A stretch of 64,000 nucleotides of DNA from a virus: the UHGV virus genome UHGV-0149956. One strand, 5' to 3'. The position numbers and the translations under genes were made by a program. The notes below the pieces were generated by a model, which worked only from the letters and a program-made list of their open reading frames with translations, did not search any database and was not told the DNA's origin. Positions 51,485-60,207 of this stretch are shown here, one piece after another; position 1 is the stretch's first letter, and each line of letters begins with the position of its first letter.

Positions 51485-51500
51485 TTGCTCTAATAAATCT
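51484..51500 (+). promoter_or_regulatory. C1-repressor-type operator 17-mer
   Basis: ATTGCTCTAATAAATCT, 16/17. Confidence 0.6.
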
Positions 51501-51678
51501 TGATTTTTAAAACAGAGAAAGTGAAAATAAAAACATGCCGCAAGGCGCGGCATGTATCCAATCAATCACAGGAGCTGAAAATATGAACACGGCATTCAAA
51601 ATCATTATGGCCGCGATCTATTTCTGGCTGTTCTCTATCACTTTTGGCGGCATTGTCGCGCATGGGTAAGGGGGATGC

Positions 51679-52407
51679 ATGAAAGGCGAAGTGAAAGAGC
51701 GCGGCATGATTTTCAACGATGAGATGGTCCGGGCCATCATCGAAGGAAGGAAAACGCAGACGCGGCGGATAATGAAAAATCAGCCTGCGGAAGTTGGTCC
51801 AGAAGCACCAGTGATGGTTAGAAAAATTGGTGCAGGTTTTCAGTGGTACGGGGCTGATGGTGTAAGCAGTGTCTTCAATTGCCCCTTTGGTATCGTCGGC
51901 GATCGAATTTGGGTTCGTGAAACATGGGCGATATTAGGCAATGAGGATGGTTGTAGTGTGGACTGGAACGACAACCTTTGTCGTGGTGATGAGAAGAACG
52001 CAGCAAGGATTTATCGGGCCAGTTGTGAGCAAAAGCCTGGTGATTACGGCTTATGGTCGATACCCGATGATGCCGACTGGAAACCTCACACTGTGAATGA
52101 AAAGTTTGATGGTGGGTGGCGTCCATCAATTCACATGCCGCGATGGGCATCACGCATTCTGTTGGAAATTACCAACGTGCGCGTTGAGCGGTTGAACGAT
52201 ATCAGCGAATGCGATGCAGGGGCTGAGGGCGTTCCGCCTGCTGGAAGTTTGCTTCCTGATTACCCGGAAACATTCCTTACTCCCAAGGGGGATTTCGCAA
52301 TGGCCAAGGTTGCGTTCCAGCGTCTGTGGGAATCCATCTATGGTGAAGAAAGCTGGAACGCTAATCCCTGGGTATGGGTAATTGAGTTTAAGCGCATTCA
52401 GGAATAA
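51679..52407 (+). CDS. Hypothetical protein
   Basis: 242-aa ORF, first gene after operator; conserved-looking N-terminus MIFNDEMVRAIIEGRKTQTRR. Confidence 0.4.
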   Translation: MKGEVKERGMIFNDEMVRAIIEGRKTQTRRIMKNQPAEVGPEAPVMVRKIGAGFQWYGADGVSSVFNCPFGIVGDRIWVRETWAILGNEDGCSVDWNDNLCRGDEKNAARIYRASCEQKPGDYGLWSIPDDADWKPHTVNEKFDGGWRPSIHMPRWASRILLEITNVRVERLNDISECDAGAEGVPPAGSLLPDYPETFLTPKGDFAMAKVAFQRLWESIYGEESWNANPWVWVIEFKRIQE

Positions 52408-52410
52408 ACC

Positions 52411-52596
52411 GTGAGTATGCATCAAGTCGTCAGCTTTTCAGGTGACGGGATTGCCAGAATGTATGCCGACAGCGACTACAGAAATTTGTATCAGGCGATG
52501 GTGCAGGCCAAGCGGTTTGATACTGGTTCGTGTTCCGAATCATGTGAAATCTGGGGTGACCAATTGGAGTTGAAATTCGAAGAGGTAGTGGCATGA
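52411..52596 (+). CDS. Small hypothetical protein
   Basis: 61-aa ORF, 4-nt spacing from neighbours. Confidence 0.3.
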   Translation: MSMHQVVSFSGDGIARMYADSDYRNLYQAMVQAKRFDTGSCSESCEIWGDQLELKFEEVVA

Positions 52597-52796
52597 CAAT
52601 CGTAAAAACCCATACCGGTACCGTGATCACCAAAGATGGCCCGCAGGTAAAAAAACTGCACCAAACAGAGCGGATGTGGGTCGTTGGCAAAAACGAGTTT
52701 TACCACAAAGAAACTGGACGCCGCCATTTTGCAGAAAATACGCGCCGCCGACTGCTGTTAGACACCATCAAGCCTATCGAGGTGAAGCATGTTTAA
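52593..52796 (+). CDS. Small hypothetical protein
   Basis: 67-aa ORF with ATGA coupling. Confidence 0.3.
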   Translation: MTIVKTHTGTVITKDGPQVKKLHQTERMWVVGKNEFYHKETGRRHFAENTRRRLLLDTIKPIEVKHV

Positions 52797-53028
52797 ACAG
52801 AACGAAAAAGCTATCGCTCAAATTGCTGATTATATCCCGCGTGCGTGCCGGGGTATGCAGTTGCAGGAAGCCAAAGCGCGCCTGGAGAAAAAAATTGCGC
52901 TCTATATTGATGACGGCTGTGATGCCGCCGTTCTTAACGAGGCGTTCGCACCAGCTCTTAACAGTCATACTCGGGAGTCCTTTCTTTCGTGCATCGCAGC
53001 GCAACTCCACCAAGGAGGCATCCAGTGA
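52789..53028 (+). CDS. Small hypothetical protein
   Basis: 79-aa ORF; ends with HQGGIQ followed by AAGGAGG-N-GTG junction. Confidence 0.3.
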   Translation: MFKQNEKAIAQIADYIPRACRGMQLQEAKARLEKKIALYIDDGCDAAVLNEAFAPALNSHTRESFLSCIAAQLHQGGIQ

Positions 53029-53669
53029 GTAACCGTTTTTACATGATGTGCTTGCGTGAAACTGTGGGTAATAACGCCTCATTCCATTGCCATAACGGCA
53101 ATGGTTACAGTTCTGATATCGATCGCGCTCATGTTTACACGCTGGAAGAAGCCCAAAAAGCCTGGAATTGTGGGCGAGATATCGATCAGCCTGTTTGTGC
53201 CGATAGTGTGGATGCAATTGCTGTGTGGCACGTTGATTGCCAGTACATCCCTACAGAAAGCCTGATTGAGTCAGATTGCACTGCGTATGTGGCCTACAAA
53301 AAAGGTAGCTGGAACGGCAACGATGTTTACTGGCTTCAACACGGTGGATTGCCAACAGATGATTTCAGTAAAGCGACCATCTTTAGCGTCGCCAACAAAA
53401 ACGAACCAGGAATAGTTTGGTTGCCATTTCCCATTGCTGATGCAGCAAAGCGCCGGACGTTCAATATCAATAACTTTAACCGCAGAACAATGGTTCAGGG
53501 CGCAGGTTTGGTCATGCCTGACTGGTTGAAAGAGCAGAACAGAAGAAAGAAGTCGCGAAGCGGGAAGGTGCGTTGGAATTGTCCGCATTGCGGAAAAATC
53601 ACCTGGCAGTACAGCCCATATGATTTTGAAGGCTGTAGTGATTACAACTGTGAAGGATGGCGAGAATGA
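53025..53669 (+). CDS. Cys-rich hypothetical protein (zinc-ribbon-like C-terminus)
   Basis: GTG start with AAGGAGG SD; C-terminus CPHCGKITWQ...CSDYNCEGW. Confidence 0.35.
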   Translation: MSNRFYMMCLRETVGNNASFHCHNGNGYSSDIDRAHVYTLEEAQKAWNCGRDIDQPVCADSVDAIAVWHVDCQYIPTESLIESDCTAYVAYKKGSWNGNDVYWLQHGGLPTDDFSKATIFSVANKNEPGIVWLPFPIADAAKRRTFNINNFNRRTMVQGAGLVMPDWLKEQNRRKKSRSGKVRWNCPHCGKITWQYSPYDFEGCSDYNCEGWRE

Positions 53670-54349
53670 CAATTGACTATCAGGTACTGCGCGAGGCGGC
53701 GGAACAGGCAACGCAAGATGAATGGGTAGCATATATTTTGCCGGGGCAAAACGGCACTTATCCTGCGCATACGTCTGAGGGTAGGCATTGCGGATACTTT
53801 ATTGACTGGCCTGGCATTGATGGACAGAGAAACGCTGGTGCCAATGCCCGTTATATCGCGGCTATCCCACCCAAAGTTGTGCTGGCTCTACTGGATGAAA
53901 TTAAGCGCCTGGAGGACACAAATATTGATGCTATGTGTCGAATTGCAGAGCTTGAGACTAATCTCGCGGCGCTGGTGGCGGAGAATGTGGGGCTAAAGGC
54001 GATATGTGATGACCGTCGCAGGTTCATCATGAATGGGGTGCAGATGGGTTATATCAAGGTGCCAGCAGCGGAAACAGATCCAGACCTTGAGACAATTCGC
54101 ATTGCTATATCACCACAAAAGCCCATTCCAGCCACTGATGCTTTCCTGTCTGAAGTGCGGGCGCAGGGGGTGGATGCTGCTATAGAAGCTGCAAAAAATC
54201 TGGTGGTCCAAGAATATGAGTATAAGGATTTCAAAGCGGCGCAGAGTGATTGCTGTATGCACCCTGGTTCAGACCTGGTAGGGAAGGTTGAAATGACTGA
54301 GTGGTTAGTTGACTTTGCTGCCCAGCTTCGCAAAGGAGGCAACCAGTGA
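53666..54349 (+). CDS. Ead/Ea22-like protein (paralog 1)
   Basis: N-terminus IDYQVLREAAEQ and VVLALLDEIKRLED shared with next gene. Confidence 0.4.
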   Translation: MTIDYQVLREAAEQATQDEWVAYILPGQNGTYPAHTSEGRHCGYFIDWPGIDGQRNAGANARYIAAIPPKVVLALLDEIKRLEDTNIDAMCRIAELETNLAALVAENVGLKAICDDRRRFIMNGVQMGYIKVPAAETDPDLETIRIAISPQKPIPATDAFLSEVRAQGVDAAIEAAKNLVVQEYEYKDFKAAQSDCCMHPGSDLVGKVEMTEWLVDFAAQLRKGGNQ

Positions 54350-54942
54350 GCGAAATTAATTACCAGGCACTGCGTGAGGCAGCACAGAACGCGAAAGATT
54401 TAGGTGAGATTAAGAATTACAAGCGAGGTGAGCAAGCTGTTGCCGAATTTGAGTCCTTAATAACGCCACGCATTGTGCTGGCGCTTCTGGATGAACGGGA
54501 AAGAAACCAGCAATACATCAAACGTCGCGACCAGGAGAACGAGGATATTGCGCTAACGGTAGGGAAACTGTTAATCGAAAACGGTCAGCTTGTTGCCGAT
54601 ACGCTACGCCACTTAGCTGATAACGAAATCGACTCTGATTATTTTGCTATCACCTCAACGAATGAGAACGGTACTGAAATTGATCATGAGATGGCTATTA
54701 CCGATTACGCACTGCAAGCTGCCGGAACTGTAGACGAATTGGTTGCAGCGCTGGAATCCGCAGAGAAGCGCATAGCAGAACTGTCTGCTAGCCACAGCAA
54801 ATTGCGCGACACAATGGCTGGCATCCACAACACAATCCGAATGGATGGCGGATATACGCCACTGACAGCAATCCTTAACGCTGCTAAACGCGCATATGAA
54901 GAATCAGCAAGCGCAGCTGGCATTCGCATCAAAGGAGAGTGA
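54346..54942 (+). CDS. Ead/Ea22-like protein (paralog 2)
   Basis: INYQALREAAQN and IVLALLDERERN; GTG start after AAGGAGG. Confidence 0.4.
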   Translation: MSEINYQALREAAQNAKDLGEIKNYKRGEQAVAEFESLITPRIVLALLDERERNQQYIKRRDQENEDIALTVGKLLIENGQLVADTLRHLADNEIDSDYFAITSTNENGTEIDHEMAITDYALQAAGTVDELVAALESAEKRIAELSASHSKLRDTMAGIHNTIRMDGGYTPLTAILNAAKRAYEESASAAGIRIKGE

Positions 54943-54943
54943 T

Positions 54944-55459
54944 ATGGCGTTAACACACCGCGAACTCTGTCAGATTGCGTACAAGTTCCTTAAGCGCAAC
55001 GGGTTCAAGGTTTGTTTTCATGACCGCTTTATAGCTGTAACCAGTACCGGAGAACAGCCAGATGCTATGGGATTCAGAAATTCAGCATCATGCCTGATAG
55101 AGGCGAAATGTTCTCGTGCTGACTTGTTGGCAGATAGAAAAAAGCGTTTTCGTAAAAATCCGTCTCTTGGAATGGGAGACTGGCGATTCTTTATTAGTGA
55201 GCCGGGAATTATTTCAATTGAGGATTTACCACCTGGCTGGGGATTACTTCACGTTGTTAACGGAAGAGTACGGAAAGTACATGGGTGGCCCAAGGGTAAT
55301 TGCTGTTGGGGTAATCCTGACGATAAGCCATTTACTGGAAATAAGCAGGTTGAATGCGATTACATGTTATCTGCATTAAGGCGCATGGAGTTGAGAGGGC
55401 ACCTTAATGAAATATATGACGGTGTAATTGTTAATAAGAAAGAAGGAAACGCGGCATGA
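54944..55459 (+). CDS. Hypothetical protein
   Basis: ORF with start at MALTHREL immediately after upstream stop. Confidence 0.3.
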   Translation: MALTHRELCQIAYKFLKRNGFKVCFHDRFIAVTSTGEQPDAMGFRNSASCLIEAKCSRADLLADRKKRFRKNPSLGMGDWRFFISEPGIISIEDLPPGWGLLHVVNGRVRKVHGWPKGNCCWGNPDDKPFTGNKQVECDYMLSALRRMELRGHLNEIYDGVIVNKKEGNAA

Positions 55460-55842
55460 TCACTATTACCAAAGAGCGACTGCTGACAATCAAGCAGTGG
55501 CGCGAAACATACGGACCGGGTAGCAACGTTGTACTGCCAGCAGAAGAAGCGGAAGAACTGGCACGAATTGCTCTGGCATCGCTGGAAGCAAAACCAATAG
55601 GTGCATTCCACATTGCAGAACAGCAAGTTGACGGCACAAGTGACTACATCAAGGATGGGGAGTGGCCTATTGATAATGGAATTATTGAGGTCTACGCCGC
55701 TCCCCCCGTTCCAGTAGTACCGGAAGAAAAACCAATGCCTAATCCTCTTAGCATGTACGCGGTTGATGCTGTTGCCGCTATTGCAGAGGTAAGAGGCTGG
55801 AATGCCTGCCGCGCGGCTATGCTTCATGGGAAAGGAAAGTGA
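55456..55842 (+). CDS. Hypothetical protein with ALASLEA motif
   Basis: 128 aa; ARIALASLEAKP shared with the 423-aa protein. Confidence 0.35.
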   Translation: MITITKERLLTIKQWRETYGPGSNVVLPAEEAEELARIALASLEAKPIGAFHIAEQQVDGTSDYIKDGEWPIDNGIIEVYAAPPVPVVPEEKPMPNPLSMYAVDAVAAIAEVRGWNACRAAMLHGKGK

Positions 55843-55843
55843 T

Positions 55844-56065
55844 ATGGCTAACTCATTACTTGAAACCTGCAACAACTGGCAGATTCAGAGGGCGGAGATT
55901 TTATCTCGCAATCCAGATATGGCAATGACAATTGATAATCTGGACACGCTAATTGAACGGACCGTGCGTTCTGCAATTGATATAGCACATCGAGTGGATT
56001 GGGATTTCAGAGAAGCGGAGCGGCTTGCTAAAGAGCAGGAGAAAGCAGCGGGTAAAGGAGACTGA
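55844..56065 (+). CDS. Small hypothetical protein
   Basis: Start at MANSLLETC after upstream stop. Confidence 0.3.
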   Translation: MANSLLETCNNWQIQRAEILSRNPDMAMTIDNLDTLIERTVRSAIDIAHRVDWDFREAERLAKEQEKAAGKGD

Positions 56066-56066
56066 T

Positions 56067-56264
56067 ATGGATAAAAACACCACTGCTTACTGGAATCTGT
56101 CACTTGATACCGAATGCCCAAAATGCGGTCACAATTTCGATCTGCTTTGTGATCCAGATTTCTGGGAATTTTCTGGAGCAAAACAGGCATGTGAAGAAAT
56201 AAAAGGTTACGAAACATGCTGTCCAGAATGTAACCATGAATTTAAAACAGATTTTGTGTATTGA
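56067..56264 (+). CDS. Small zinc-ribbon protein
   Basis: CPKCGH...CCPECNH two CxxC pairs. Confidence 0.35.
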   Translation: MDKNTTAYWNLSLDTECPKCGHNFDLLCDPDFWEFSGAKQACEEIKGYETCCPECNHEFKTDFVY

Positions 56265-56274
56265 GGCATAACGA

Positions 56275-57546
56275 ATGACCACTTTTACTAAAGAACAATT
56301 AATAGAGATGATTAAGCGCAATATAACGATTATGGATCGTTATCCTGATTTAGTAACTGCACAAATGGATCTGGAAGTATACAAAATTGCGCTGGCATCA
56401 CTGGAAGCAGAACCAGTTGCTTATATTTTCAAACATCCGGCCGGGAAATTATTCTGGGCTTTAACGGATGAAAGCAATAAAGAGCAAGCGGACGTTATTC
56501 CTGTTTATGCTGCCGCGCCTGCGTCGGTTGTGCCGGATAATGCATCAGAGCCTCTTGCTTATGCTTACAAAGAGCTTACGCCTGAGATTATGCGCAACCA
56601 TTTAGCTGTATTCGAGCGATATGGAATAGCCCCAAACGATAGCTCTACCACAATTCAGGCACTGCGAATCGCGCTGGATGGTATAGAGCGGAGCGACGCC
56701 ATGCTTCAGTCCGGAAACTTTCGGAAAAACAAGAATTCGTCAACCAATAATTTTCGGGAAATCGCGGAAACGTCAACCAACTATCCGGTAATTCCTAGTG
56801 AGGTGTTGTCCGCAATCCTGAAGGTTGCCAAGATTCGTGCCGATTTCGATGATTTTGACGGTGACAGGCGAGGTATCGATGATTGTCTGGATGAGGCTGA
56901 GCAAGAGCTTATCGTTACCATTAACAAATATGCCAGTCAGTTGGCAGCAGAACCGATAGCGACTAATGACGTTCGAGAGCAAACAGCCGTTCCGCCAGTT
57001 CCGGTAATACAGGCTGATGTCGCGCAGGCAATTGAAAAACTCAAACGGAAATTAGTGGAATGCAATCGCTATAACTACTGCGCAGATGCAGTTAAAGGCG
57101 TTGAGGATGCCTGCCGTGCTGTTAGCTATAGCCATGCCGACAATCAACCAGCATCTGGCAACCAGGCAGCCGAATCCAATCGCGGTAATGAGTGGACCGG
57201 CAATCCTGATATTGATAACGCCATCATCATGCTCGATCGCATAGATACGCTGGAAAGTTGCGATGATGACCGTATTGAGGCTGTTAAGGCTGTTTTGCGT
57301 AGACTAGCTGGCAACTCTCCGGTAACTCCGGATGGTTGGATAAGCTGTAGTGAGCGAATGCCGGATACCAAAACAGCCGTTCTTGTTGCCGTGGAGTTTG
57401 ACAGGAAAGGTGACTGGCGAATGAAATGGGCTACTTACATCCCGGGGCATCCTGACGCTAATGATGGGTGGATAATTCCTGGTGCGTCGTGGAAACCGTC
57501 ACACTGGATGCCGCTACCAGAACCGCCGCAGGAGGTGAATCAATGA
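56275..57546 (+). CDS. Hypothetical protein with C-terminal DUF551-like domain
   Basis: C-terminus DGWISCSERMPD...GWIIPGASWKPSHWMPLPEPP typical of the prophage DUF551 pattern. Confidence 0.4.
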   Translation: MTTFTKEQLIEMIKRNITIMDRYPDLVTAQMDLEVYKIALASLEAEPVAYIFKHPAGKLFWALTDESNKEQADVIPVYAAAPASVVPDNASEPLAYAYKELTPEIMRNHLAVFERYGIAPNDSSTTIQALRIALDGIERSDAMLQSGNFRKNKNSSTNNFREIAETSTNYPVIPSEVLSAILKVAKIRADFDDFDGDRRGIDDCLDEAEQELIVTINKYASQLAAEPIATNDVREQTAVPPVPVIQADVAQAIEKLKRKLVECNRYNYCADAVKGVEDACRAVSYSHADNQPASGNQAAESNRGNEWTGNPDIDNAIIMLDRIDTLESCDDDRIEAVKAVLRRLAGNSPVTPDGWISCSERMPDTKTAVLVAVEFDRKGDWRMKWATYIPGHPDANDGWIIPGASWKPSHWMPLPEPPQEVNQ

Positions 57547-57610
57547 GCTGGCCTGAAGCATTCACCACGGTAGGAATTGTGATGGCGGCAGCACTGGGTT
57601 TGTATTCAAT

Positions 57611-57862
57611 TTGTCGCTGGTGGTAACGATGGGAAAAATAACTTTTGTAGTCGAATTTGAGGATGGTAAAGAGCCACCTGTTAGCGCCAATCTTGATGTT
57701 GCTGGTGGCAGGCTTGTTTCGGTTCTATTTGGTGACTACCGAGATGATTTCTTCCAACCAGAAGAAGTTGATGTGGTGCGAGAGGCATTAAACGAGTTAA
57801 GTGTTGATAACGATGATGCTCATGCGGAAATCATCCAAAAAATGGAGCTGCTAACTCACTAA
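57611..57862 (+). CDS. Small hypothetical protein
   Basis: 83-aa ORF. Confidence 0.3.
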   Translation: MSLVVTMGKITFVVEFEDGKEPPVSANLDVAGGRLVSVLFGDYRDDFFQPEEVDVVREALNELSVDNDDAHAEIIQKMELLTH

Positions 57863-57910
57863 ATTATCAATTATGGTGCTATCACCTACGACACCGAGAG
57901 AAAATTTATA

Positions 57911-58333
57911 ATGTCAAAAGTAAATGTTTTGATTTTTCAGCAATTGTTGGCTTTGGTTTTACTGCCGGAGTGCAGATTTATATTACGTGGGAAAAAATCA
58001 TCAACTACGCATGGAGTTGTTTTATTAAGTGAGGTAAGTATGTGGAGAGGTAATAGTCATGGCAAAAGCCAGATGATACTTACCGAATATCAGCTCGACC
58101 ACAAAACCAATAAATCACGTTCAGTATATTTGCTTCGCCACAATAGCCGCGTAAGGAATACCGTACTGGAGCAAAATCTGACCGTTGAAATGGATAATTA
58201 CGGGGGCTTCAAGCCAACAATATCGCTTGATGATTTTCCTCGTGGTTTAAGCGAAAGAGAAGCAATGCTGAAATTAGCAGAATGGCTACAAAGATTAAGC
58301 ATTGCTATTGAAGATAACTGGTCTGAACCTTAA
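57911..58333 (+). CDS. Hypothetical protein
   Basis: 140-aa ORF. Confidence 0.3.
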   Translation: MSKVNVLIFQQLLALVLLPECRFILRGKKSSTTHGVVLLSEVSMWRGNSHGKSQMILTEYQLDHKTNKSRSVYLLRHNSRVRNTVLEQNLTVEMDNYGGFKPTISLDDFPRGLSEREAMLKLAEWLQRLSIAIEDNWSEP

Positions 58334-58339
58334 ATTAAT

Positions 58340-58714
58340 ATGATGACACTAAAACATTTTCTTGACCGCCCATTATGGGCGGCAGCCGCAGGCTATGACT
58401 TTAATTATATGGATTGCATGTCTTATACTGCCAATGCATACGACCATTCGTTCAGCCTGCTGTTTAATTCTTTAAGAATATTGCCGGAAACAGAAGTTGG
58501 AGAGCTTCATTTATGGATATTGGGCTTTATCGCGGCTGTCGTTGGTATTGCTGTATGGCCTTTTATTTTCTGGCTGGTGGCTGTTGTAGTGTGGTTTAAG
58601 TGCAAGACATACCGGAGAAAGTATTTCTTAGGTGATGGAATGACTGATATTGCCAAAATGAACATTGAAAAATGGACTAAGGAATGTGAAAAGAAATGGC
58701 GCAAAAAGAAATGA
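58340..58714 (+). CDS. Membrane protein
   Basis: Hydrophobic helices LWILGFIAAVVGIAVWPFIFWLVAVVVWF. Confidence 0.35.
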   Translation: MMTLKHFLDRPLWAAAAGYDFNYMDCMSYTANAYDHSFSLLFNSLRILPETEVGELHLWILGFIAAVVGIAVWPFIFWLVAVVVWFKCKTYRRKYFLGDGMTDIAKMNIEKWTKECEKKWRKKK

Positions 58715-59634
58715 CCAGAATCACTGAAGAGCGTATATCAGAGATTATTTCCCGTATCGAAATGTATGGTCACGGTGCTGGATATACGGCAGATGAAGTA
58801 TTGGCACTTGCCCAAATGGCTTTGGCGGCTTGCAAAGATGATAAAAAAATGAAGCTTATCGACTTGTTAGTGAAGGAGCTGCCTAAGTGCGGCGGGTGGC
58901 CTGATGGAATGAGTTATTGTTACCTACCCAGTGTCAATTTAATGGCACCATGCGCGACTTTTGCTTTTGGCTCAGACCACAAAAAAGACACTTTCTTTGG
59001 GCGCAATTTTTGTTGTGAGATTGAGCTTCCAATTGGTGACCTTGATAGCGATGAATACCAGTCAGTTGTCACTCGCGAACAATACGAATCAGCTCTCATA
59101 GCGTCGCAGAAAGTCGAGTTCAATGGTGATGAACCTGAAAGTAAGACTTACAGGTTGGATTTTGGGCAATGGCTGGAACAGCAACGCGGAAAGATCGATG
59201 TGGACTGTGGTTGTGTGTCCACTGAAACATTCATGCACTGGCTGCGGGTAGCTTACGAGGCTGGCAACTATCCGGATATTCCGGATAGTTCGGTGTCAGC
59301 GCCAGGAAAGGGCGTCACCGGTGGACGTATCCGCATTAAGCCGCATGTTTATCGCGAACTGGTTAACCGTCTCCACGATACAGCGATCAAGTGTGCTGGC
59401 ACCCAGCAATTACGAGAAAGAATTAGCCGTGTTTTGGGCGACGTTATTACGCCAGATCATCATAAACAAGCCGAGAAAAGTGGCTTGGAAAGGTGTCACC
59501 TTGAGGCGGCATTAAACATTAAGCCGGGGCATACGCTTGGCATTATTGATGCACTATTGGTTCATAAGATGGCCAGGGCTTTATTGCCGCTGGTGGCTGA
59601 AAAGCATGAGGCGGACCATGCCAACGAAAGCTGA
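58696..59634 (+). CDS. Hypothetical protein
   Basis: 312-aa ORF. Confidence 0.3.
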   Translation: MAQKEMTRITEERISEIISRIEMYGHGAGYTADEVLALAQMALAACKDDKKMKLIDLLVKELPKCGGWPDGMSYCYLPSVNLMAPCATFAFGSDHKKDTFFGRNFCCEIELPIGDLDSDEYQSVVTREQYESALIASQKVEFNGDEPESKTYRLDFGQWLEQQRGKIDVDCGCVSTETFMHWLRVAYEAGNYPDIPDSSVSAPGKGVTGGRIRIKPHVYRELVNRLHDTAIKCAGTQQLRERISRVLGDVITPDHHKQAEKSGLERCHLEAALNIKPGHTLGIIDALLVHKMARALLPLVAEKHEADHANES

Positions 59635-59902
59635 GTTACAGGCGCGCATAGAGATTCTTGAAAAAGAGAATGCGAGTCTAAAAGGAATGCTGGCGCGGGC
59701 GGAAAGGGAATTATCAGGCAAATTATTGCCAGAAGAGCTGCCACCAGCAGATATACCTGATCGAGTGTCCTGGTGGATGAAGTATTTCCGTGCACCGTGG
59801 GAGGCGTTTTGGTGCTACGACCATCGCAGATGGTGTGATGAGCTTGATAGCAGTTTCCCCTATTTTGCGGAAGGGAACTCTTGCCCTGAATGTAGGAGTT
59901 AA
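59618..59902 (+). CDS. Coiled-coil zinc-ribbon protein (tandem paralog 1)
   Basis: C-terminus PWEAFWCYDHRRWCDELDSSFPYFAEGNSCPECRS. Confidence 0.4.
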   Translation: MPTKAELQARIEILEKENASLKGMLARAERELSGKLLPEELPPADIPDRVSWWMKYFRAPWEAFWCYDHRRWCDELDSSFPYFAEGNSCPECRS

Positions 59903-60207
59903 TGATGACCGGCGAGCTTTATTTTAAAATGGCACGGGAGCGGCGTGTGCATCTGGATCGGATATTTCATCTCCAGAAGAGAGTAGAAGAACTGGAACGT
60001 CGTCTGAACTGTTATCCTGTTGATATGGTGTCTGCAATACCGCCGATTCCAATAGAAATGCAGATCCGCCTATGGATGGAAGAATATGGAATGCCGTGGG
60101 AGATATTTTTCTGCTTCGACCATAAACAGTGGGTAGATGAGCTGGATAATAGTTTCCCATATTTCACAGAGAACACATGCCCAGTATGCAGGAAGAACGG
60201 AATATGA
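59902..60207 (+). CDS. Coiled-coil zinc-ribbon protein (tandem paralog 2)
   Basis: C-terminus PWEIFFCFDHKQWVDELDNSFPYFTENTCPVCRK. Confidence 0.4.
   Translation: MMTGELYFKMARERRVHLDRIFHLQKRVEELERRLNCYPVDMVSAIPPIPIEMQIRLWMEEYGMPWEIFFCFDHKQWVDELDNSFPYFTENTCPVCRKNGI

Follow-up and report, generated by a model that had tools for sequence, protein, structure and literature searches.

We examined a junction between small genes in the UHGV virus genome UHGV-0149956, of which one strand of 64,000 nucleotides (nt) was analyzed (hereafter, the window). Positions 40000-64000 match P1, P7, SJ46, and other Punavirus genomes at 98% identity over 59-78% of the length, and the window is therefore a P1-like phage-plasmid. 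Within an accessory operon of this element, the junction, AAGGAGGCANCCAGTGAG, places the end of one gene directly over the start of the next. We conclude that this junction, which would couple the translation of neighboring genes, probably also acts as a short patch of homology for recombination. An earlier sequence-only reading had proposed that conserved junctions at this locus serve as recombination linkers for small genes; reassortment of the flanking genes, breakpoints near the junction, and cassettes bounded by two junctions in related genomes all support that proposal.

Exactly two copies of AAGGAGGCANCCAGTGAG are present in the 64 kb window, at 53012-53029 and 54333-54350. With up to three mismatches allowed, 0.13 matches would be expected by chance, and two copies arose in one of 100 shuffled sequences. 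Ungapped similarity between the copies covers 34 nt (52996-53029 versus 54317-54350), 27 of which are identical (79%). Copy 1 (52996-53029, plus strand; core AAGGAGGCATCCAGTGAG at 53012-53029) consists of a Shine-Dalgarno (SD) sequence, a 6-nt spacer, and a GTG that overlaps the UGA stop, while copy 2 (54317-54350, plus strand; core AAGGAGGCAACCAGTGAG at 54333-54350) is a direct repeat of it in the canonical form. As the sequence-only reading had described, the next gene begins at GTG behind an SD. The starts lie at 53025 and 54346, the SD, AAGGAGG, is 6 nt ahead of the GTG in both copies, and the TGA within the overlap is the stop of the upstream gene. Both copies thus have the layout of a translationally coupled overlap, with an NTGA overlap and an SD 5-9 nt upstream, inside the upstream open reading frame (ORF). 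The same reading had counted several genes with this junction, which proved too many: the junction is there, but at the end of only two genes, with a gene of 214 amino acids (aa) between them. Similarity confined to the SD would have spoken against a linker; we found instead that the spacer, the GTGAG, and 4-24 nt upstream are conserved as well.

Four genes, all on the plus strand, flank the two copies. The upstream partner of junction copy 1 is a 79-aa gene (52789-53028; phrog_1344, function unknown) whose product ends in CIAAQLHQGGIQ. The 214-aa gene (53025-53669; phrog_2457), a homolog of P7 upf87.6, has its GTG start inside junction 1. It is followed by Ead/Ea22 gene 1 (Ead-1; 53666-54349, 227 aa), which starts at an ATGA overlap and ends in FAAQLRKGGNQ, and by Ead/Ea22 gene 2 (Ead-2; 54346-54942, 198 aa), which has its GTG start inside junction 2 and ends in GIRIKGE within a second type of junction described below. 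The two proteins encoded upstream of the junction copies, ending in AAQLHQGGIQ (52789-53028) and AAQLRKGGNQ (53666-54349), are alike over their last 15 residues (8/15 identical, E=0.029) and otherwise unrelated. An alternative-frame ORF of 118 codons (52676-53032), which overlaps the 67-aa and 79-aa genes and ends in KEASSE just past junction 1, is probably spurious, and the same frame is persistently open, at about 155 codons, in several prophage loci.

Signals other than the ribosome-binding site and the stop-start overlap were looked for at the junctions. Folding of three junctions gave no significant RNA structure or inverted repeat (z = -0.94, +0.16, and -0.64). The sole match in an Rfam scan of 50500-58500 was GcvB (E=0.41), far below its gathering score and away from the junctions. 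No sigma-70-type promoter-like site was found at the junctions, and the region as a whole had 11 such sites compared to 15.9 in shuffled controls. Terminator-like sites were absent from every junction and were not in excess across the operon.

An exact scan of IMG/VR for 17 specified bases of the junction matched at least 120 viral contigs. From this and later scans we collected 173 unique 418-nt contexts and clustered the 140 nt upstream and the 140 nt downstream separately, scoring as a four-gamete quadruple any two upstream types that were each found with both of two downstream types. The 173 contexts formed 13 upstream and 28 downstream clusters joined in 76 combinations, with 240 four-gamete quadruples. 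Two ordinary ATGA junctions of the accessory operon itself served as controls. At the junction between the 214-aa gene and Ead-1, 59 of 65 contexts had the same upstream gene, the rest look like chance matches in unrelated phages, and no quadruples were found; many downstream variants were seen there, switching only after a coding island at the Ead N-terminus. The junction between a 171-aa and a 128-aa gene, with 70 contexts, had one upstream cluster, essentially one downstream cluster, and likewise no quadruples. Because neither control yielded quadruples, two-sided reassortment is a property of the repeated junctions.

When one representative per cluster was compared, from 13 upstream and 26 downstream families, the 23-nt consensus CGCAAAGGAGGCAACCAGTGAGC was obtained, often extended by A-x-Q-L codons upstream and by Ead N-terminal codons downstream. 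Similarity between different upstream families reached no further than 29 nt upstream of the motif, and the encoded tails were diverse (NAMWRKGGNQ, VDFAAQLRKGGNQ, SIAEQLRKGGNQ, and SCIAAQIRKGGNQ). The downstream genes were mostly Ead members with different bodies, together with at least eight non-Ead genes, including the 214-aa gene, an S-adenosylmethionine (SAM) methyltransferase, and a gene resembling phosphoadenosine phosphosulfate (PAPS) reductase. Some Ead genes have unrelated ribosome-binding regions, so the canonical junction is not required for expression. It preceded 102 of 136 Ead genes in one motif-selected set of loci and 0 of 11 in another, and because the biases of these sets are opposite, no estimate was drawn from them.

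A 44-nt query spanning 54317-54360 had matches in 933 of 5426 complete Escherichia coli genomes, at 847 chromosomal and 254 plasmid places. It also matched 58 phage records, including HK97, HK544, HK629, HK106, HK75, mEpX1, CUS-3, and P22-like Salmonella phages, in the last of which the junction forms the EaE/EaA boundary. In HK97 and the P22-like phage SE1, the junction lies in the early-left operon just 3' of erf-type recombinase genes. The HK97 copy (2526-2630 of the compared stretch) follows gp37, which ends in FADQLRKGGNQ, and precedes an unannotated 34-codon Ead remnant, MSKIDYQALREIAKHQRL, then a terminator and xis.

Breakpoints lay within or close to the junction. In 128 pairs of contexts with downstream flanks at least 97% identical and unrelated upstream sequence, identity began between -23 and 0 of the motif. 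Conversely, in 136 pairs with upstream flanks at least 97% identical and unrelated downstream sequence, identity stopped either where the motif ends (+17 to +20) or within the Ead N-terminal island (+26 to +59). Junction 1 also contains the point, at 53012-53014, from which the window is homologous to P7, the P1 isolate MH422554, and Stx2c phages (Stx, Shiga toxin); for P7 and MH422554 the homology starts at GGAGGCA. A single polymorphic base in the spacer (CATCCA versus CAACCA) occurs with different upstream genes, which suggests that crossovers take place within the junction itself.

The closest relatives gave the same picture on a smaller scale. Five elements, of which four are P1-like plasmids and one is a chromosomal prophage, carry the 67-aa and 79-aa genes at 93-97% identity, and directly after the GTGA identity falls to about 24%. 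Comparison of gene content between relatives, which the sequence-only reading had suggested, revealed four different genes after the same 79-aa gene: the 214-aa gene, the SAM methyltransferase, and two Ead types. The methyltransferase cassette has a copy of the junction on each side. No E. coli genome record covered at least 80% of the hypothetical product of a deletion between junctions 1 and 2 at high identity. Some records do have an Ead gene immediately after the 79-aa gene, and those Ead genes are not identical to Ead-2.

Several observations indicate that conservation acts on the DNA of the junction. P7 upf87.4 reads through the junction in another frame and ends in EATSE, and the upstream ORF of MH422554 ends in EASSE. 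In upstream clusters U5, U8, and U10, the in-register frame already closes a few codons before the junction. The GGNQ tail is therefore a by-product of DNA conservation. A survey of frames over all contexts was confounded by the downstream frame, which is open across the junction, and by the probably spurious alternative-frame ORF, so the frame argument rests on the annotated P7 gene and MH422554.

The repeated element consists of the 7-nt SD, AAGGAGG, the fixed 6-nt spacer, and a GTG whose TGA stops the preceding gene, and it recurs in near-identical form at many unrelated gene pairs in the ea regions of enterobacterial lambdoid prophages and in the ea-type operon imported by P1-like phage-plasmids. 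We propose that, repeated over 23-45 nt at many boundaries, or about 85 nt where Ead N-terminal codons are included, it would provide a near-perfect homology patch at which homologous recombination could exchange, insert, or delete whole genes. Recombinants would keep their reading frames and ribosome-binding site and hence be viable, and the junction would become a hub for gene reassortment. Phage Rad52-type annealing proteins or RecA are the likely enzymes. Red-beta is reported to need a minimal pairing segment of 23-27 bp and RecA one of 31-34 bp (PMC3945230); at 23-45 nt, the patch is at or above the former and close to the latter. The arrangement in the window, in which the 79-aa gene and junction 1 are followed by the 214-aa gene with Ead-1 and then by junction 2 and Ead-2, is what would be expected from insertion of a two-gene cassette between junction copies. 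The same logic could extend to three further repeats described below, the Ead N-terminal island, the VLALLDE island, and a 31-nt IALASLEA repeat.

A number of points weigh against this interpretation. With 23 nt, the core barely reaches the length at which pairing is efficient, and recombination is deduced here from comparison of present-day sequences. Retrieval by exact match makes the central 17 nt invariant by construction, so that true variability of the junction is larger, and variants with one to three changes exist. Part of the downstream-side reassortment falls in the Ead N-terminal island, outside the junction proper. The A-x-Q-L codons vary at synonymous sites, and the upstream tail may be under some protein-level constraint. 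Finally, at least one rearrangement at this locus, a deletion in reference P1, was illegitimate.

That deletion is apparent when the window is aligned with reference P1 (NC_005856), which matches only 47191-52373 and 59253-59599 and lacks the 6.9 kb between them (52374-59252). Its pmgT begins with the first 695 nt of the window gene at 51679-52407 and continues, out of frame, into the 3' part of the ORF at 58696-59634. The joint, CCCTGGGT/TACGAGG (window 52373/59253), has about 1 nt of microhomology, and because of this the C-terminus of PmgT, and probably pmgU, look like products of illegitimate deletion rather than native sequence.

The P1 joint also speaks for a different explanation, in which the junctions share no more than a 5' end passed down within the Ead/Ea22 family, made up of a ribosome-binding region and N-terminal codons, and illegitimate joints are kept by selection at gene boundaries, with no role for the junction in recombination. 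Most genes downstream of the junction are indeed Ead members, the core is retained where the in-register upstream frame is closed (U5, U8, and U10), as if it were part of the downstream gene, and flanking homology was lacking at between about half (PMC2327257) and about 70% (PMC3945230) of mosaic boundaries surveyed. Yet inheritance of an Ead 5' end does not account for the non-Ead genes, at least eight including the 214-aa, methyltransferase, and PAPS-reductase-like genes, that begin at the junction, nor for the control junction before Ead-1, which has another ribosome-binding region and a single upstream partner. Illegitimate joints would not be expected to recreate an identical 23-nt stretch again and again where the partners are unrelated, and the CATCCA/CAACCA polymorphism within the junction is itself reassorted against the flanks. 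We consider this explanation unlikely. A functional C-terminal peptide, [FILW]-A-x-Q-[LI]-R-K-G-G-N-Q, with DNA similarity as a by-product of selection on the protein, would explain why many unrelated upstream proteins end in it and why the A-x-Q-L residues are kept while their codons vary synonymously. It is at odds with the R-K-G-G-N-Q codons, which have almost no synonymous variation, with upstream families that lack A-x-Q-L (for example, those ending in NAMWRKGGNQ), with the differently framed upstream genes of P7 and MH422554 (EATSE and EASSE endings), and with the frames closed a few codons upstream in U5, U8, and U10; this makes the peptide quite improbable as the cause.

The cassette-like layout, with copies of the junction flanking inserted genes, and the HNH endonuclease genes annotated near some copies could instead point to a site-specific or structure-specific system resembling integron attC sites or homing endonucleases. 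No integrase or recombinase domain was found among the 10 cluster proteins scanned, the junction has no significant structure or inverted repeat, and breakpoints are spread over about 80 nt instead of falling at one position, so that such a system seems highly unlikely. Chance, or the generic likeness of strong SD sequences, is effectively refuted. AGGAGG followed by a start codon is common, and a looser pattern for the second junction type did match unrelated AT-rich phages, but two copies were observed against 0.13 expected, spacer and flanks are conserved, and the exact 17 bases recur in at least 120 viral contigs and the junction in 933 E. coli genomes.

The sequence-only reading had regarded the two Ead genes as adjacent paralogs, which holds in the sense that both belong to PF13935 (Ead_Ea22; E=6.3e-21 and 75.8 bits for Ead-1, E=1.5e-17 and 64.9 bits for Ead-2, against a gathering cut-off of 27). 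They are distant, with 27% identity over 121 aa (E=7e-6), and their likeness is limited to an N-terminal IDYQ.LREAA and to VLALLDE, with only short islands at the DNA level. They are therefore members of one family and not a recent duplication. Ead-1 partially matches 11 PHROG families, in keeping with a mosaic make-up.

Similarity between the window and prophages was mostly in short repeat islands, judging from the distribution of high-scoring segment pairs (HSPs). The N-terminal coding island of Ead-1, IDYQVLREAAEQ (53671-53713, plus strand), is where similarity to relatives begins or stops, with HSP starts peaking at 53671-53672 and ends at 53711-53717; the P7 match stops at 53700. Its counterpart in Ead-2, INYQALREAAQN (54351-54394, plus strand), is contiguous with junction 2, and 68 HSPs end at 54374-54394. 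The VLALLDE island forms a 23-nt direct repeat (D1, 91% identity) on the plus strand, at 53877-53899 in Ead-1 and 54473-54495 in Ead-2. The Ead-2 copy is a putative intragenic crossover point, as 67 HSPs start at 54473-54480 and plasmid AP026472 has, as its second Ead gene, one that matches Ead-2 at 98% identity from 54479 on but differs at the N-terminus. These coding islands, which the earlier reading took only as evidence of paralogy, appear to be additional crossover zones.

A second junction type, AAAGGAGAGTGATATGGC, occurs in three copies on the plus strand, compared to 0.02 expected by chance with up to two mismatches. The first copy (54931-54948) contains an SD and a TGA stop followed by ATG; the other two, AAAGGAAAGTGATATGGC (55831-55848) and AAAGGAGACTGATATGGA (56054-56071), are repeat matches to it. 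In prophages, the exact 18-mer joined 25 upstream and 13 downstream families with 51 four-gamete quadruples; only its looser pattern gave the chance matches in AT-rich phages mentioned above. Genes before this junction end in KGE (GIRIKGE, HLRTKGE, and MLHGKGE), and at least six different genes follow it. A 31-nt direct repeat (D8, 90% identity, plus strand) lies in two different genes, with its left copy at 55566-55596 (IALASLEAKP) and its right copy at 56385-56415 (IALASLEAEP) in a DUF551 gene. P7 upf89.5 corresponds to window positions 55456-55596 fused to 56385 onward across this repeat, with 55597-56384 removed. The DUF551 gene also contains a 33-nt tandem duplication (56716-56780, 75% identity) encoding NFRKNKNSSTN and NFREIAETSTN.

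Conserved linkers are central to the modular theory of Susskind and Botstein, and the boundary sequences described by Clark et al. in 2001 (HK620) are cited as proposed recombination foci in later accounts (PMC2327257, PMC3029335). Like these sequences, the junction is short, conserved amid unrelated flanks, located at gene or module boundaries, and a proposed focus of homologous recombination, and it occurs in the same phage group, including HK97 and P22-like phages. Four marks of a boundary sequence, namely conservation amid unrelated flanks, a position at a gene boundary, reassorted flanks, and coinciding breakpoints, are found at the junction. Clark et al. 2001 reportedly recognized seven sequences delimiting functional modules. 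The junction differs from that description in separating single accessory genes within one operon; it is also itself the ribosome-binding and stop-start signal, occurs in tandem within a genome, and is found in P1-like plasmids, and it may nonetheless be one of the seven.

The PeSL cassettes of T4-type phages (Arbiol et al. 2010, PMC2839356) are similarly repeated expression signals beside non-essential genes in hyperplastic regions, and recombination between copies inserts, deletes, or replaces genes with expression kept, as proposed here. PeSL crossovers were mapped partly between the SD and the -10 box (PMC2839356). PeSLs are about 100 bp, intergenic, and carry a sigma-70 promoter and a terminator stem-loop, whereas the junction, at about 23-45 nt, has neither, overlaps both coding regions, and depends on transcription of the operon. 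Mini-circles have been demonstrated for PeSLs. Integron cassettes offer another parallel, in that both are arrays of promoterless genes split by a recurring element, with cassettes gained or lost between copies. With no integrase in the 10 scanned cluster proteins, no attC-like imperfect palindrome, and spread breakpoints, the resemblance is one of outcome and not of mechanism.

Relaxed recombination by Rad52-like recombinases such as Red-beta, Erf, and RecT, which act on patches that are short or diverged (Martinsohn 2008, PMC2327257; De Paepe 2014, PMC3945230), would supply the likely enzymology, with ea genes located just 3' of recombinase genes in HK97 and a P22-like phage. In those studies, however, the "shoulders" were hundreds of bases of moderate identity, and the junction patch is far shorter and near-identical. 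Ea22 proteins of lambda and Stx phages are mosaic at the protein level (PMC10834534). The Ead genes of the window likewise share an N-terminal segment and a coiled coil while their C-terminal domains are interchangeable, with DUF551 as a portable one, although that study, being at the protein level, does not include a DNA junction, its recurrence before non-Ead genes, or breakpoints. In Stx phages, genes of this ea type affect the choice between lysis and lysogeny (PMC10834534).

De Paepe et al. in 2014 (PMC3945230) detected no recent exchange of the lambda-like group with phages of the P1-P2-Mu group. In contrast, segments of 52400-57600 in the window share 95-98% identity with Stx2 and other lambdoid phages, which points to recent lambdoid-to-P1-like exchange, and Stx2 phages cover up to 49% of this interval at 95-96% identity. 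The data show that genes have recently passed between prophages of the lambdoid type and P1-like plasmids.

Whether phage mosaicism arises by homologous exchange at conserved linkers (Botstein and Clark) or by random illegitimate joints filtered by selection (Hendrix) has long been disputed. This locus is a compact, countable case for linker exchange, with a linker of about 23 nt present in about one in six complete E. coli genomes, and the illegitimate deletion in reference P1 at the same locus provides a side-by-side contrast with reassortment at the junction. As the junction is short and precisely defined, the linker hypothesis can be tested directly by mutation. The exchange mechanism has already been proposed for lambdoid phages, and the junction is a clean example of it and not a new type of system. 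No paper describing the type-1 junction was found in the searchable literature, and it may already have been described in the older lambdoid literature.

A more far-reaching and tentative idea, which we hold to be possible but rather doubtful, is that the junction, the type-2 junction, and the Ead coding islands form a maintained, operon-internal cassette-exchange system of temperate enterobacterial phages, with the linker kept near-invariant by second-order (evolvability) selection in addition to selection on translation. Lambdoid phages such as HK97 and SE1 carry Rad52-type recombinase genes just upstream of the junction in the same early operon. If the idea is correct, a linker of about the shortest length that Rad52-type proteins can pair makes accessory genes interchangeable, and it lets whole sets of genes move across unrelated phage lineages, for instance out of lambdoid phages and into P1-like plasmids.

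The accessory operon that contains the junctions (51679-59634, plus strand) comprises at least 13 tightly packed same-strand genes in the ORF list, whose stop and start codons mostly overlap or abut. Genes of this kind usually make up the ea (exo-xis) accessory region in lambdoid prophages, and P7 and other isolates have different gene sets at this position. Composition gave no sign of foreign origin, as the GC content of the cluster (0.41-0.50) is not different from that of the P1 backbone. An NCBIfam search of the cluster proteins returned one weak zinc-ribbon match only, and every match in a PHROGs search was to a family of unknown function.

The operon begins just 3' of pap and a P1 C1-repressor operator, ATTGCTCTAATAAATCT (51484-51500, plus strand), which has one mismatch to the operator consensus. 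This site is the homolog of P1 Op88/OpmgT and P7 Op(hea), and its position matches the operators annotated in P1 and P7. Nine C1 operator-like sites were found in the window compared to 0.32 expected, and the entire accessory cluster is probably a C1-repressed early operon. A weak promoter-like site (51456-51485) overlaps the operator. Between the operator and the first gene of the cluster lies a strong terminator-like hairpin on the minus strand (51533-51555), with 10 pairs followed by a T run, which overlaps a small plus-strand ORF (51535-51669). Just 3' of the cluster, the adjacent ORFs 59537-59902 and 59902-60207 form a tandem paralog pair with a common C-terminal module, PWE.F.C.DH..W.DELD.SFPYF....CP.CR, which resembles a zinc ribbon.

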